From the NCBI GenBank assembly GCA_947040495.1, contig CAMRBQ010000007.1, positions 4,623-68,622 on the forward strand: DNA of 64,000 nt. The letters are read 5' to 3'. This stretch comes from an uncultured Spirochaetia bacterium. Its GTDB lineage: Bacteria > Spirochaetota > Brachyspiria > Brachyspirales > Brachyspiraceae. Below the pieces are notes generated by a model. The model saw nothing but the letters and a program-made list of their open reading frames with translations. It did not search any database and had not been told where the DNA came from. The translations under genes were made by a program, and so were the position numbers. Position 1 is the first letter of the stretch. Every line of letters begins with the position of its first letter. Below are positions 23,883-58,191 of the stretch, one piece after another.

Positions 23883-25751
23883 ATGGAACATCTTTTGAAA
23901 ACAAATAATAATAATTATGATGTAATAGTTGTAGGGGCAGGGCATGCGGGTATTGAAGCTGCTCTTGCTAGTGCAAAGCTTGCTTGTAATACACTTTTAA
24001 TAACTATCAATCTTGATAATATGGGCCAGCTATCTTGCAATCCATCTATTGGTGGCATTGCTAAAGGGCAAATCGTAAAAGAGATAGATGCCCTTGGTGG
24101 AATCATGGGACATGTAATCGACAATACCATGATGCAATTTCGTATGCTTAATAAAAGTAAAGGTAAAGCCGTATGGGCCCCACGTTCGCAGGCGGATAAA
24201 TATGCATATAAAGACTATGTAACAAATGTTTTATATGCTCAAAAAAATCTATCTATTATGCAAGATATAGTTATATCTTTATGTGTAGAAAATAAAAAAA
24301 TTGTTGGTGTAAAGACTGAGCGTAATAATATATATACAGCAAAATCTGTTGTTCTTACTACGGGTACATTTTTGAATGGGCTTATTCATATTGGGCAATA
24401 TCAAAAAGCCGCTGGTCGTATTGGTGAATTGCCTGCAGTTGGGCTGTCTGACAATCTTCTATCACTAGGTTTTTCTGTCGGTAGATTAAAAACCGGCACT
24501 CCTGCTAGAATAGACAAAGATAGTATAGACTATAATAAAACTGAAATACAACATGGCGATGATAAAATATATCCATTTTCATATGAAACTAATAGCATAG
24601 ATATAGAACAAACTCCATGTTGGTCTATATATACAAATATAAATATACATAAAATTATACAAGATAATATTCATCTTTCTCCATTATATTCTGGTCGTAT
24701 TACAGGTGTTGGTCCAAGATATTGCCCGAGTATTGAAGATAAGGTTGTTCGCTTTGCTGATAAGGATAGGCATCAATTGTTTTTGGAATTAGAATCGCTA
24801 CGTAGCAATGAAGTTTATATAAATGGATTTTCATCTAGCTTGCCCGAGCATGTTCAAAATCAAATGATTCATAGCCTAGTAGGTCTTGAGGAAGTAAAAA
24901 TATTAAAGCCTGCCTATGCTATAGAATATGACTATGTCAATCCAATAGATTTATATCCAACACTCGAAACAAAGATTATAGAAGGGCTCTTTCATGCTGG
25001 GCAAATCAATGGTACTAGTGGATATGAAGAGGCAGCAGCTCAAGGTTTAATAGCAGGCATTAATGCGGCATTAAAAATACAAGAGCGAGATAGTTTTATA
25101 TTAAAGCGTAGTGATGCATATATCGGTGTTCTTATCGATGACCTTACAACTAAGGGAACAACCGAGCCATATAGAATGTTTACATCTCAAGCGGAATATA
25201 GAATGATATTAAGGCAAGATAATGCTGATGAAAGGCTTACAAAATTATCATTTGATATTGGGCTTGCTAGCGAACATAAATATTTAAAAGTCGTAGAAAA
25301 AGTAAAACAGAGAGATAAACTTATTGCTTATCTTGGCGGATATTATCTATCAAAAGAAGAGCTACTTAATATTGGGCTTGAAAAAGAAGCAAACGAATAT
25401 AAATCTATTAATTTAGCAAATATAGTGAAGCGTCCACAATGCGGTATCGATTATATAAAAAATATTGGTGAAGTATCAAACTATAATGAAAATGTCATAG
25501 AGAGTGCTGAGATAAATATAAAATATGAGGGATATATTAAGCGGGCGCAAAATGATATTGAAAACATGAAAAAATATGAGAACATGAAAATCCCAATAGA
25601 TTTTGATTATGACCTTGTGCCAAGTATAAAAACAGAGGCAAAAGAAAAATTAAAACTGCATAGACCGCTTTCTATTTCTCAAGCAACTAGAATATCTGGA
25701 ATTGACCCATCCGTAATACAGGCTCTAATGATTCTACTGCGTAGGCTTTAG
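23883..25751 (+). CDS. mnmG: tRNA uridine 5-carboxymethylaminomethyl modification enzyme
   Basis: YDVIVVGAGHAGIEAA FAD motif and GQINGTSGYEEAAAQG; 622 aa. Confidence 0.95.
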   Translation: MEHLLKTNNNNYDVIVVGAGHAGIEAALASAKLACNTLLITINLDNMGQLSCNPSIGGIAKGQIVKEIDALGGIMGHVIDNTMMQFRMLNKSKGKAVWAPRSQADKYAYKDYVTNVLYAQKNLSIMQDIVISLCVENKKIVGVKTERNNIYTAKSVVLTTGTFLNGLIHIGQYQKAAGRIGELPAVGLSDNLLSLGFSVGRLKTGTPARIDKDSIDYNKTEIQHGDDKIYPFSYETNSIDIEQTPCWSIYTNINIHKIIQDNIHLSPLYSGRITGVGPRYCPSIEDKVVRFADKDRHQLFLELESLRSNEVYINGFSSSLPEHVQNQMIHSLVGLEEVKILKPAYAIEYDYVNPIDLYPTLETKIIEGLFHAGQINGTSGYEEAAAQGLIAGINAALKIQERDSFILKRSDAYIGVLIDDLTTKGTTEPYRMFTSQAEYRMILRQDNADERLTKLSFDIGLASEHKYLKVVEKVKQRDKLIAYLGGYYLSKEELLNIGLEKEANEYKSINLANIVKRPQCGIDYIKNIGEVSNYNENVIESAEINIKYEGYIKRAQNDIENMKKYENMKIPIDFDYDLVPSIKTEAKEKLKLHRPLSISQATRISGIDPSVIQALMILLRRL

Positions 25752-25772
25752 TTGCATATATAAAATGCATTA
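25734..25772 (+). repeat. Left arm of the inverted repeat bracketing RadC-like cassette 1 (overlaps the last 18 nt of mnmG)
   Basis: ctactgcgtaggctttagttgcatatataaaatgcatta matches the reverse complement of 26692-26730 at 32 of 39 positions by hand, with the first 15 nt identical. Confidence 0.75.
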
Positions 25773-25847: not shown

Positions 25848-26561
25848 TCATTTCAATTTGTCTATTTCTTTTTTTGGTATATTTGTAATTTTTATTATTT
25901 CTTCTATATTATAATTCATAGATAACATTTCTTTTGCTATTTCAATATTTCTTTTTTCGATACCAACTTTTTCACCTTCTTTTTTTCCATCAAGTTTATA
26001 ATCTTGCTTCTCTTTATCCAAAATATCTTTGACATCATCAACAGCCTGATAGGTTATATCTTGTTCGAAAAAATCTATATATTTTTCTACAAAAAAACTA
26101 TAGTAAATTGATTCTTCACTTTCTAAAGATGAGCGTGAAATTATTATATGGTCAATTAAATTTAGCCCCAAATATTTCGACCTATGATAAAATTTATTCG
26201 TAAAGTCTATATCATATTGTGAAGGCTCAGGATTTTTTCTACTTGTATGATTATGGGCAATAACAATATTTTTTGATTTATGTTTTACGGCTGTATCAAA
26301 AATATCTATGATAGGAAGCTTCACCATATTTTCAGTGCCCAAAGCCACAAGATAAATACAAACAACATATCCATCGCTGTCCATGCCCATTATCCAAAAA
26401 TGCTCTTTACTATATAAATCTTTATTCTCAATTTTTAACACATGGATAAACGCTCTATAATAATCTTCTACGCTGCTTATTTTTATAGATTTTTTTTTAA
26501 TATCTTTGACAGTTCTAATCAACATTTTTTTATTATCTTCAATTTTTTTCTTGCTTGCCAT
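25848..26561 (-). CDS. RadC-like JAB/MPN-domain protein, paralog 1 (C-terminal HTH-like tail)
   Basis: EHFW...AHNHTSRKNPEPSQYD fits the RadC-type E / HxH / SxxD signature. About two thirds identical to the 31078..31791 product by eye. Confidence 0.75.
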   Translation of the reverse strand: MASKKKIEDNKKMLIRTVKDIKKKSIKISSVEDYYRAFIHVLKIENKDLYSKEHFWIMGMDSDGYVVCIYLVALGTENMVKLPIIDIFDTAVKHKSKNIVIAHNHTSRKNPEPSQYDIDFTNKFYHRSKYLGLNLIDHIIISRSSLESEESIYYSFFVEKYIDFFEQDITYQAVDDVKDILDKEKQDYKLDGKKEGEKVGIEKRNIEIAKEMLSMNYNIEEIIKITNIPKKEIDKLK

Positions 26562-30997: not shown

Positions 30998-31006
30998 ATT
31001 CTTTCC

Positions 31007-31055
31007 CTAAGTTGCACATTGTAATATTCATATTAACATACAAATATATTTGACT
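31007..31055 (+). repeat. Conserved non-coding flank (repeat core plus 21-nt block) downstream of RadC-like paralog 2
   Basis: ctaagttgcacattgtaatattcatattaacatacaaatatatttgact differs from 53701-53749 at about 6 of 50 aligned columns (hand alignment). Confidence 0.75.
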
Positions 31056-52236: not shown

Positions 52237-53688
52237 ATGAAAGAAGACTCTCAATCTAGGGTTAAAGTGAGAAAAAGGGTATTGCATGTATCTAAAAAAT
52301 CTGTTAACTCAAAAACACCAATAAAGTCTAATAGAGAAGAAAAAGCTATTTTTAAAAATGAAAATAGTTTGGAAGAAAATACTTATAATGGAATAACAAC
52401 CACAGAGGCAATAGATAAAGATACTATTAATGATATACTTCATGTTAGCCAACTTAGTCAATTAACTTTGGATGGACTTATTTCTATTGGTGTTAAATAT
52501 GGTATTGCCTATGAAGGCAGCATCAAAAGACAAGACCTTATGCATGCTATTTTACGTAGCCAGATTTCAAATGGTGGTAAAATTATAGCTGATGGTACAT
52601 TAGAAATATTACCTGATGGATATGGATTTTTGCGTTCAAAGATGTCGAACTATCTACCTGGTTCAGATGATATATATATATCGCCATCACAGATAAGGCT
52701 TTTTGCTCTCAGAACAGGCGACCTTGTATCTGGTGAAGTACGCCCACCAAAAGATAATGAACGATTTTTTGCTCTACTTAGAATAGATACTGTAAATGAA
52801 GATACTGCTGATAATTCATTTAAACGACCGGTATTTGAAAGCCTCACACCAATATTTCCAAATGAAAGAATGGATTTAGAATTCTCTCCTTCAAAAATTG
52901 CAACACGTGTTATAAATCTTGTTTCACCTATTGGTAAAGGTCAGCGTGGTTTAATTGTTGCCCCGCCAAAAGCTGGAAAGACTATGATACTTCAAGAGAT
53001 AGCCAATGCTATAAGCTCAAACTATTCCGATGTGAAATTATTTATTTTACTTATAGATGAACGTCCTGAAGAAGTTACAGATATGGCTCGTCATGTTCGT
53101 GCTGAAGTTATTGGCAGTACATTCGATGAACCGCCTGAGAAGCATGTACAGGTGTCTGAGATGGTGCTTGAAAAGGCAAAACGACTTGTAGAAAAAGGCC
53201 ATGATGTTGTTATCATGCTCGATTCTATAACAAAACTCGCACGTGCTTATAACCTTGTTGTGCCTGCTAGTGGAAAAATATTGACAGGTGGTATCGATTC
53301 AAATGCACTTCATAAACCAAAGAGATTTTTTGGTGCTGCTCGAAATATTGAAGAGGGTGGCTCTCTAACTATTATTGCGACAGCCCTTGTCGATACAGGT
53401 AGTAGAATGGATGAGTATATATACGAGGAATTCAAGGGTACTGGTAATATGGAATTACACCTTGAAAGAAAACTTGCAAATAGAAGACTTTTCCCTGCTA
53501 TCAATATAAATAATTCTTCGACAAGAAAAGAAGAAATGTTGCTTACTGAAGAAGAAATGAATAAGATGTGGGCATTTAGAAAATTCATACAGAATCAAAT
53601 GGACGAAAGCGAAGTTATGGAACTTGTTATTGATAAAATGAATTCTACTAAAGATAATATGAGTTTCTTAAAGCTTATGAATGGCTAG
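52237..53688 (+). CDS. rho: Transcription termination factor Rho with ~65-aa N-terminal extension
   Basis: GFLRS..., Walker [18 protein letters not shown] and LARAYN blocks; 483 aa. Confidence 0.96.
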
Positions 53689-53749
53689 GTACGGCGTACG
53701 CTTAAGTAGCACATTATAATATTGGTATAACATACAAATATATTTGACT
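53689..53749 (+). repeat. Conserved non-coding flank (repeat core plus 21-nt block) downstream of RadC-like paralog 3, starting 1 nt after the rho stop
   Basis: gtacggcgtacgcttaagtagcacattataatatt... The first 27 nt resemble the cassette 1 repeat arms (21 of 27 vs the right arm, 19 of 27 vs the left). 53701-53749 parallels 31007-31055. Confidence 0.7.
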
Positions 53750-53780
53750 TCCTCTGTCTACTAAATTATAAAGATGTCTA

Positions 53781-54461
53781 TCATTTTAATTTGTTTATTT
53801 CTTTTTGACTTAGACCTGTATGTTTAGAAATTATATTAATATCAATGTTATCAGCTAACATACTTTTTACTATTTCAATATTTCTTTTTTTAATCATATC
53901 ATAAGCATAATCTTTTTTTTCTTCTTCCAACATCGGTTTTAATTCTTCATAAGGCGTATAAGAAATATCTTCATGTATACTTTTCATAACATGCATTTCT
54001 TTATAGCTATAATAAATTGCTGTTTCGCTTGTTAGGCTTTTTGTAGAAATAATAATATGGTCGAGCAATGTTAGCCCCACAATACTTGCCATATGATAAA
54101 CTTTATTTGTGAATAGAACATCTTCATCTGATGGAATAATCTCACTTACATCTGGATGATTATGAGCGAGTATAACCCTTTGGCAACTATGATTAATAGC
54201 AGTTTTAAATAAATCATGTGCTGTTAAATTTACAAAATTGCCACCACCCAAAGCGACTATATATGCACAAACTGTGTAGCCTTTATCATTCACACCGATA
54301 AGCCAAGCATGTTCTTTTTGCTCTAATTCTTTATCTTCACTTTTAAGTAGATTTACAAAGATACGATAATAGTTTTCTATCTTTTCTATTCTAACTCTTT
54401 CTTTTTTTATTTTTTTGATAGTATTAATTATCATCATATCTTCTACTTTTTTCTTTACCAT
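53781..54461 (-). CDS. RadC-like JAB/MPN-domain protein, paralog 3 (divergent)
   Basis: EHAW...AHNHPDVSEIIPSDED signature. The C-terminal tail IVKSMLADNIDINIISKHTGLSQKEINKLK resembles that of paralogs 1 and 2. Confidence 0.7.
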   Translation of the reverse strand: MVKKKVEDMMIINTIKKIKKERVRIEKIENYYRIFVNLLKSEDKELEQKEHAWLIGVNDKGYTVCAYIVALGGGNFVNLTAHDLFKTAINHSCQRVILAHNHPDVSEIIPSDEDVLFTNKVYHMASIVGLTLLDHIIISTKSLTSETAIYYSYKEMHVMKSIHEDISYTPYEELKPMLEEEKKDYAYDMIKKRNIEIVKSMLADNIDINIISKHTGLSQKEINKLK

Positions 54462-54645
54462 AATGTTACCTTTTATGTTAGTAATATTTTCTTGTTGTTA
54501 TAATTTTTATTATATATGATTTTTTATTCTTTTCTACTATTGTGGTGTTCTGTATAAAACGATATGTATATTTATACTAGTTTACATATTAGTTTATTTG
54601 TTTATAATACAGACGATAAATTAATATATGGTGTAATAAATACTT

Positions 54646-58013: not shown

Positions 58014-58123
58014 CCCATGCACATATCTTCCCATTTCTATATTAAATATCAATCTAGCAGCAATAGAGTAACTCCAAATAGAAGACCTTCCACTACTTAT
58101 AAAAGGCAATGTAAGACCTGTTA
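58014..58123 (-). pseudogene. Displaced 3'-terminal fragment of a rodA-like gene (last ~36 codons)
   Basis: 110 nt aligned without gaps to 60191-60300 with 12 mismatches by hand. It would encode TGLTLPFISSGRSSIWSYSIAARLIFNIEMGRYVHGLECHS. Confidence 0.8.
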
Positions 58124-58191
58124 TAACAGTAACTTTTTTCCTTTTAAAGAAAATAATTGTTCTAAATAATTTCGAAATTTATACAGATTGA

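Follow-up and report, generated by a model that had tools for sequence, protein, structure and literature searches.

A 49-nt noncoding block at positions 53701-53749 of a 64,000-nt stretch of DNA from an uncultured Spirochaetia bacterium (the window; contig CAMRBQ010000007.1 of assembly GCA_947040495.1) is very probably one arm of a palindromic repeat that is restricted to this lineage and has about 100 copies dispersed across the genome. The repeat resembles MITEs (miniature inverted-repeat transposable elements) and REPs (repetitive extragenic palindromes). The block lies between rho and the 3' end of a gene for a RadC-like protein (RadC3), in what we call cassette 3; cassettes 1 and 2 lie elsewhere in the window, and cassette 2 holds the paralog RadC2. 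A first-pass annotation of the window had noticed that this flank is better conserved than the gene beside it, and this apparent paradox becomes an ordinary property of a repeat family. The repeat is new, specific to the lineage, and tied to a family of RadC paralogs with a tail of the Rpn type. The genome (2.55 Mb, 30% GC; a draft of 165 contigs that is 96.6% complete) pairs an apparently young palindromic repeat, for which we could not identify a transposase, with a family of about 27 RadC/JAB proteins whose Rpn-type tails recombine.

The block aligns with positions 31007-31055, in cassette 2, with 44 of 50 columns identical (88%) and 2 gaps in a global alignment; about 6 differences in 50 columns had been counted by hand. 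When the whole 2.55-Mb genome was searched with blastn-short, 48 nt of the block matched the copy in cassette 2 at 89.6% identity (E = 7e-7). RadC3 and RadC2 are 39% identical according to BLASTP and 40.3% identical in a pairwise alignment of amino acids, as had been estimated by eye (roughly 40%). Their coding sequences are 56.5% identical, with 47.8% identity at third codon positions and 8 of 17 four-fold degenerate sites identical, which implies that the synonymous sites are saturated. Compared pairwise, the flank is conserved far above these synonymous sites. A third candidate copy of the block, a 19-nt match on contig C43, lies within a coding gene and is a chance match.

The anatomy of the repeat can be seen in 16 complete elements that contain no gene, which we found by pairing inward-facing arms. 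These span 85-120 nt (most are 100-108 nt), and in them two inverted arms meet at the center, AAATATATTT, to form a single long hairpin (-10 to -48 kcal/mol). An arm consists of an 11-nt self-complementary tip, a 16-nt core (GCTTAAGTTGCACATT), and about 34 nt that lead to the center; in finer detail, the tip is followed by GC, then by TTAAGTTGCACATT, then by about 25 nt, and then by the center. As the arms of the complete elements meet at the center, the 49-nt block corresponds to the core, or most of it, and the inner half of one arm. In particular, 53689-53718 matches the terminal repeat of the complete element on C47 (93% over 30 nt), and 53728-53745 matches the center of the element on C51 (94% over 18 nt). 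The 27 nt 3' of the rho stop codon had been likened to both arms of cassette 1, and they do resemble them, slightly more than was first counted: 23 rather than 21 of the 27 positions match the right arm and, by hand count, about 20 rather than 19 match the left arm (25734-25760).

The core occurs 61 times in the genome with at most 2 mismatches; the reversed core, as a control, occurs once, and each of 30 related genomes contains 0-3 copies. A profile search with nhmmer found 83 arms, and 110 sites are within 3 mismatches of the core. The tips are mostly CTAC-TGC-GTAG or GTAC-NGC-GTAC. Across 61 genomic copies of the arm, the stem of the 11-nt tip covaries: in the same register, its pairs are CG in 25 arms and GC in 14, TA in 35 and AT in 11, and AT in 32 and CG in 9. 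Stem positions 1-3 are paired in 72-85% of the arms, as compared to 13-75% (mostly 30-50%) in shifted registers, and all four pairs are present in 24 of 61 arms, versus 0-4 of 61 in shifted registers.

Within 450 nt of RadC genes, a zone of about 2% of the genome, we found 24 of the 83 arms, which is a roughly tenfold enrichment. The other 59 are elsewhere, for example beside genes for phosphoglucomutase (PGM), Maf, FtsJ, and PadR. Thus, the picture of an arm that is private to the RadC cassettes needs to be corrected: most arms are not beside RadC. Arms are often found at the ends of genes. Of 60 arms, 27 abut the end of a long open reading frame (ORF), and 12 of those 27 are at most 1 nt from the stop codon (the rho junction is included). 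The stop codon is TAG at 19 of the 27 ORF ends, versus 24% genome-wide. A plasmid collection contained no match. A scan of metagenomes with the 16-nt core gave more than 120 contigs, with a single hit each, and nhmmer and tblastn identified no true family member and no RadC there.

The higher conservation of the flank can be understood by comparing its history with that of the gene. In the tree of RadC proteins, RadC2 groups with the paralogs C95, C1, RadC1, and C5 (support of 100/98), and RadC3 falls outside this group. None of these four closest paralogs of RadC2 has this type of arm. In addition, tails have been exchanged between paralogs: some N-terminal domains are 93% identical with tails that are 53-58% identical; the tail of RadC3 is 81% identical to that of paralog C2_1, but their N-terminal domains are only 39% identical; and paralog P0005 is a mosaic of a RadC2-like N-terminal domain and body and a RadC3-like tail. 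It follows from the armless closest paralogs of RadC2 and from the exchanged tails that gene and flank have separate histories. A sister genus has 5-8 paralogs with the RadC-tail arrangement and no arms: we found no repeats flanking these genes and no shared flanks. In this genome, the closest pairs of RadC paralogs have 0.4-0.6 synonymous substitutions per site (dS), with dN/dS of 0.17-0.36; the family is under purifying selection. These dS values, together with the armless paralogs of the sister genus, imply that the RadC genes are old and the arms are young.

Over the same 49 nt, the 61 arms have a mean pairwise identity of 67%, and their nearest neighbors have a median identity of 80% (interquartile range, 76-84%). 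The arms of cassettes 2 and 3 are 86% identical by this measure, which ranks 15th of 61. Their likeness (86-88%) is high but within the range of the family, and it is not exceptional. We propose that the two arms are alike through a shared ancestry much more recent than that of the RadC paralogs, which predate the repeat. This recent ancestry could have come about by amplification of the repeat, by gene conversion between the 3' ends of cassettes, or by both. In cassette 3, the intact arm is placed exactly 3' of the rho TAG codon; the decayed arm, which is the older of the two, is further in, next to the RadC3 stop codon. The data show the anatomy of the repeat, its copy numbers, its restriction to the lineage, the discordance between the trees of flank and gene, and the exchange of tails; how the arms spread, whether through transposition-like insertion or through conversion, and with what enzyme, is our inference. 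Repeat amplification and conversion from one cassette end to another both fit the data; vertical coinheritance does not. If the flank had been inherited with the genes since the duplication that gave rise to RadC2 and RadC3 and had simply been conserved, this would account for the position of both arm copies, which lie 3' of a RadC gene in the same orientation. However, this explanation is hardly credible, as the discordance between the tree and the flank already contradicts it: besides the armless relatives in this genome and in the sister genus, arms are found at many sites without RadC. The first-pass annotation was right that the flank is under a different regime from the gene, and one of its suggestions, gene conversion or a recombination-type site, fits our findings. 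It was mistaken in viewing the block as a flank of this pair of RadC genes that outlasted the divergence of their coding sequences: the block is a copy of an arm that is repeated across the genome.

Cassette 3 and its surroundings are laid out as follows, with the partner copy in cassette 2 on the last line.

52237-53688, plus strand: rho, 483 amino acids (Pfam Rho_RNA_bind, ATP-synt_ab, and Rho_N); its TAG stop codon (53686-53688) directly abuts the arm.
53689-53699, plus strand: tip of the outer arm, the 11-nt mini-palindrome GTAC-GGC-GTAC, with the stem that covaries across 61 arms.
53700-53715, plus strand: 16-nt core of the outer arm, GCTTAAGTAGCACATT (family consensus GCTTAAGTTGCACATT), from the genome search with the core.
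53716-53749, plus strand: inner half of the outer arm, to just beyond the center AAATATATTT (53736-53745), which matches the center of the element.
53746-53767, plus strand: decayed inner arm, comprising the hairpin GAC-TTCCTCT-GTC and a shortened, degenerate core, TACTAAATT, from a column-wise alignment.
53768-53780, plus strand: canonical 13-nt junction from the arm to the RadC stop codon, ATAAAGATGTCTA, the same in other cassettes.
53781-54461, minus strand: RadC3, 226 amino acids, with a RadC/JAB domain (PF04002, 77 bits) and an Rpn-type C-terminal tail.
54462-54540, minus strand: conserved leader or promoter region of RadC, the right-hand limit of cassette 3, by homology to the cassette on C37.
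54534-54540, oriented like the left arm: CTACTAT, an arm stub of 7 nt, at the end of the leader.
31006-31055, plus strand: outer arm of cassette 2, without the mini-palindrome tip; it begins 8 nt past a gene for tRNA-Ser.

A column-by-column alignment pairs the decayed inner arm of cassette 3 with the intact ones of C111, cassette 1, C1, and C23b, and the hairpin of the decayed arm has counterparts (GAC/GAT-TTGCT-GTC) in C111, C21, and C23. A 13-nt sequence like ATAAAGCTATCTA joins the core of the arm to the RadC stop codon in C1, cassette 1, C23b, C37b, C85, and C111. The double-arm layout is also found at C111 and cassette 1, and cassette 2 has no recognizable inner arm. More broadly, inverted arms that are 807-904 nt apart bracket RadC genes, each with its leader, on C1, C7 (cassettes 1 and 2), C23, C37, and C64. 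Over 54 nt, the right end of cassette 1 is 87% identical to a gene-free element in its right half. The interior of such an element thus corresponds to the two ends of a cassette joined to each other. Upstream of RadC3, the first-pass annotation had found no convincing inverted partner, and we agree: there is just the CTACTAT stub, in the same orientation. The 32 nt at 54509-54540 are 100% identical to the cassette on C37, and both sequences diverge at the same base within the tip of the arm; at this break point, C34 and C1 run on into a full arm. As its upstream end retains only a stub, cassette 3 is probably no longer a complete unit. A homolog of RadC3 (77% identity) with a different neighbor is on a 1,437-nt scaffold in ENA from another metagenome (L019). 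There, the arm at the 3' end of the RadC gene is in the opposite orientation, with its tip towards the stop codon, so the orientation of arms at RadC 3' ends is not fixed.

The arm also lies at a break in gene order. In five relatives from two genera (L013-L017), rho stops with TAA at the corresponding codon, and a gene for an Smr-like protein follows 7-20 nt downstream. In our genome, the two genes are not neighbors: the break is precisely at the stop codon of rho, and the homolog of smr is on another contig (C108:190-781), behind an unrelated ORF. Since the order of rho and smr is preserved in five relatives and is broken at the rho stop, the arm and the cassette mark a synteny breakpoint. 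Arms may therefore drive rearrangements.

The case for mobility of the repeat comes from its copy number, its restriction to the lineage, and its position. Several observations weigh against our overall explanation. The 16 complete elements do not have a consistent direct repeat in their flanks, so there is no sign of target-site duplication. Y1_Tnp (PF01797), DDE_Tnp_1, DDE_3, OrfB_IS605, and Transposase_31 are absent from the 96.6%-complete draft, and rve is present only as fragments; as the genome is in 165 contigs, an insertion sequence (IS) could lie in the unassembled part. Also, we looked up related strains with the exact proteins RadC3, Rho, L17, and DegT, and the retrievable contigs, which came from the same strain (99.985% identity) and, in a single case, from a second strain (98.8% identity), did not show any presence/absence polymorphism. 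(In the second strain, RadC3 is also beside DegT, and the contig ends inside RadC3, short of the junction on the rho side.) Finally, the arms of cassettes 2 and 3 are each other's nearest neighbors and share the features of a sub-type, which favors a specific event between these two cassettes over random membership in the family. In such an event, gene conversion or ectopic recombination would have copied the 3' flank between cassettes that are 22.7 kb apart and in the same orientation. We consider this possible but unlikely on balance, and it is compatible with a dispersed repeat: the immediate cause of the two arms' likeness would then be this event. The inner parts of the two arms are identical at 32 of 36 positions, as compared to at most 28 of 36 for every other arm, and recombination at the 3' ends of RadC genes is evident from the swapped tails and the mosaic P0005. 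However, the shared tract ends at TTGACT: from there to both stop codons, the sequences are unrelated, and the adjoining tails differ. Thus, any conversion tract would be only about 50 nt long, and with an identity of 86-88%, the conversion would not be recent.

A different explanation is that a site-specific recombinase acts at the arms, which would resemble the dif modules of Xer or the attC sites of integrons, and that it moves RadC genes as modules from one such site to another. This would suit the inverted sites around single genes, the lack of target duplications and of a transposase, and the two cassettes that lose homology at the same base inside the mini-palindrome. The genome also contains 8 matches to Phage_integrase (tyrosine recombinases), including a full-length gene (C2:37916-38425, minus strand) whose 3' end is about 60 nt from a variant of the arm. 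We nevertheless consider this explanation quite improbable. On inspection, the arm does not have the 11-6-11 architecture of dif sites, and a fuzzy search of the draft did not find a convincing dif-like site for comparison; furthermore, the RadC paralogs are old, with each in its own place, and they do not form an array or have the context of an integron integrase. It is more improbable still that the flank is a functional element specific to these cassettes and under purifying selection, such as a small RNA or a promoter that is antisense to the 3' end of RadC. The first-pass annotation had proposed such a promoter, and TTGACT (53744-53749) and TATAAA (53767-53772) are indeed present on the plus strand of cassette 3 with a 17-nt spacing. 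Regulation at the 3' end is conceivable, as the tail region of Rpn encodes a small intragenic antitoxin (PMC10400941). However, TTGACT arises where the center of the palindrome runs into the mini-hairpin that follows, and TATAAA belongs to the canonical ATTATAAAG junction. Their spacing of 17 nt is confined to cassette 3, and neither the -10 element nor the spacing is present in cassette 2 or C111. A scan of the region found 10 promoter-like sites, versus 9.4 in shuffled sequences. Neither the cassette 3 region nor the loci with complete elements match any family in Rfam, and the region has no excess of folding energy relative to shuffled sequences (z = 0.09, 0.23, -0.38, and 0.21). Moreover, the genome contains about 100 sequences of this type, most of them not near RadC. 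The antisense promoter is thus unsupported.

The RadC family is large in this genome. We found about 30 RadC-like loci with tblastn, several of which are cut by the ends of contigs, and all-against-all clustering of ORFs gave a family of 27 members, which is the second-largest in the genome. There are 25 matches to Pfam RadC in this genome, as compared to 5-8 in g2, a sister genus, and 2 in g3 (16 genomes); a large sister genus among the relatives has one true RadC per genome. Nine contigs end within RadC paralogs (C37:1-385, C55, C56:1-398, C58:3-374, C111, C116, C129, C160, and C162), so the family is a main cause of assembly breaks, and because of these fragments, the true number of genes is somewhat below the 30 loci that we counted.

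The N-terminal domain has a genuine RadC/JAB fold: PF04002 is matched with 77-80 bits (cutoff, 22), and the AlphaFold2 model of RadC3 (pLDDT of 78.6) matches a RadC structure, 2qlc, with a target TM-score of 0.83. The metal-binding motif HNH...PSxxD is intact in RadC3, and 12 of 15 full-length paralogs have HxH...PSxxD. These proteins are not canonical full-length RadC: they score 68-72 bits against the equivalog NF000642 (cutoff, 180), and only positions 73-205 or so align. A separate, canonical RadC is on C101. The last 70-85 residues of the paralogs match positions 194-273 of TIGR01784, from the Rpn family, with E = 1.8e-9 to 9e-6 (9e-6 for RadC3), below the cutoff for the whole protein. 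The PD-(D/E)XK nuclease domain of Rpn (Transposase_31, PF04754) is absent from the proteins and from the genome, PADLOC gave no hits, and a Pfam search with the tails alone found nothing significant. Searches of the literature for RadC with Brachyspira, and for RadC with repeats, gave no account of this system.

The RadC paralogs are a mosaic family whose 3' ends recombine. C-terminal tails of about 32 amino acids are swapped independently of the N-terminal domain, for example at C2:75346-76161, at C34:12106-12798, at C5:34710-35393, and at 25848-26561 of the window. A stand-alone ORF of 27 codons (C5:53338-53421) encodes only a tail of the RadC3 type (84% identical to residues 196-226 of RadC3), with an arm 83 nt upstream of it. 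This ORF could be a remnant, or it could encode a small tail-only protein analogous to RpnS. The nearest RadC relatives outside the spirochetes that we found with the KEHxW motif are from bee-gut bacteria (Snodgrassella, Gilliamella, and Orbaceae; L153-L172) and are 30-34% identical. Some of these alignments extend into the tail, and none of these genes has a repeat arm nearby.

It is conceivable, if improbable, that the RadC/JAB proteins with Rpn-type tails act in trans as nucleases that recognize the hairpin-tipped arms, and that they move or recombine the cassettes and their gene-free derivatives of about 100 nt. If so, a nuclease of the JAB fold would underlie this system, be it mobile or recombinational, in place of the transposases and recombinases known so far. 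Such a role would likewise account for why arms are enriched at RadC genes, why the interior of gene-free elements matches the ends of cassettes, why tails are swapped, and why synteny breaks at rho. The biochemical role of RadC-like proteins is still unsettled, and if the repeat and the RadC family are functionally linked, then the arms would offer a testable DNA substrate for these proteins.

Several known systems share features with this one. Like the MITEs Correia/NEMIS of Neisseria and RUP of Streptococcus pneumoniae (PMC3184786, PMC11602168), the complete elements are noncoding, about 100 nt long, and have terminal inverted repeats; both also have tens to hundreds of intergenic copies in one lineage, often at the ends of genes, and a longer version with a gene between the same ends. 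However, no target-site duplication was visible here, and in the longer version the gene between the ends is for a RadC/JAB protein and not for any recognized transposase. The RadC genes are old, divergent paralogs (dS of at least 0.4), unlike near-identical IS copies. REPs, which form bacterial interspersed mosaic elements (BIMEs) and are associated with REP-associated tyrosine transposases (RAYTs), are likewise short extragenic palindromes with a covarying stem, often with GTAG in the tip, and they occur in clusters and inverted pairs, with an associated gene that is flanked by inverted copies. In contrast, this assembly does not contain a Y1_Tnp gene, the arm is much longer, with a conserved nonpalindromic core of 16 nt, and the flanked gene has about 27 paralogs, whereas RAYT is a single gene.

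The Rpn proteins are multicopy recombination-promoting nucleases with variable tails (PMC5350276, PMC10400941). Like the Rpn proteins (YhgA-like; with the intragenic antitoxin RpnS), the RadC paralogs are a multicopy, nuclease-like family whose homologous, variable tails are exchanged between paralogs. They differ in that the N-terminal domain is RadC/JAB rather than PD-(D/E)XK, and PF04754 is absent from the genome. We know of no description of palindromic repeats that flank rpn genes. Mobile insertion cassettes (MICs) and the pdif modules of Acinetobacter also place single genes that do not encode transposases between inverted repeats or sites; here, in contrast, we identified neither a cognate IS transposase nor the architecture of Xer sites, and mobility is putative. 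Among spirochetes, plasmids of Borrelia carry stem-loops of the IS605 type beside lipoprotein genes, without a transposase (PMC2775950), which is a precedent for orphan, dispersed hairpin ends. The comparison is by description only, and the arms of our genome differ in forming inverted pairs and 100-nt palindromes, with no IS200/IS605 genes.

We also noticed a few variants. In a decayed islet downstream of the DegT operon, 42 nt of the window (58120-58161) correspond to just 10 nt in the strain at 98.8% identity (L031:4012-4021). Two AT-rich metagenome contigs (22-27% GC), which are the same unrelated contig in two samples, contain a single short hairpin, CCAT...ATGG, directly before CTTAAGTTGCACATT, with no RadC gene nearby (L086:697-750 and L108:7944-7997). 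This hairpin may be due to chance or may be a distant relative of the arm. In our genome, two copies of an arm variant (C2:37816-37856 and C2:24252-24308) have a stretch of about 30 nt in common, TTTCCTAGTTGCACATT and then TGAATGCATTAA; one of them is the variant close to the full-length tyrosine recombinase gene. Finally, the start of contig C29 (13-76) is a tandem array with a period of 21 nt, which corresponds to the tip of the arm and the first 10 nt of the core, and similar nested or tandem partial arms are found on C1, C6, C8, C21, and C52. This points to slippage, or else to insertions that recurred at one fixed position of the core.

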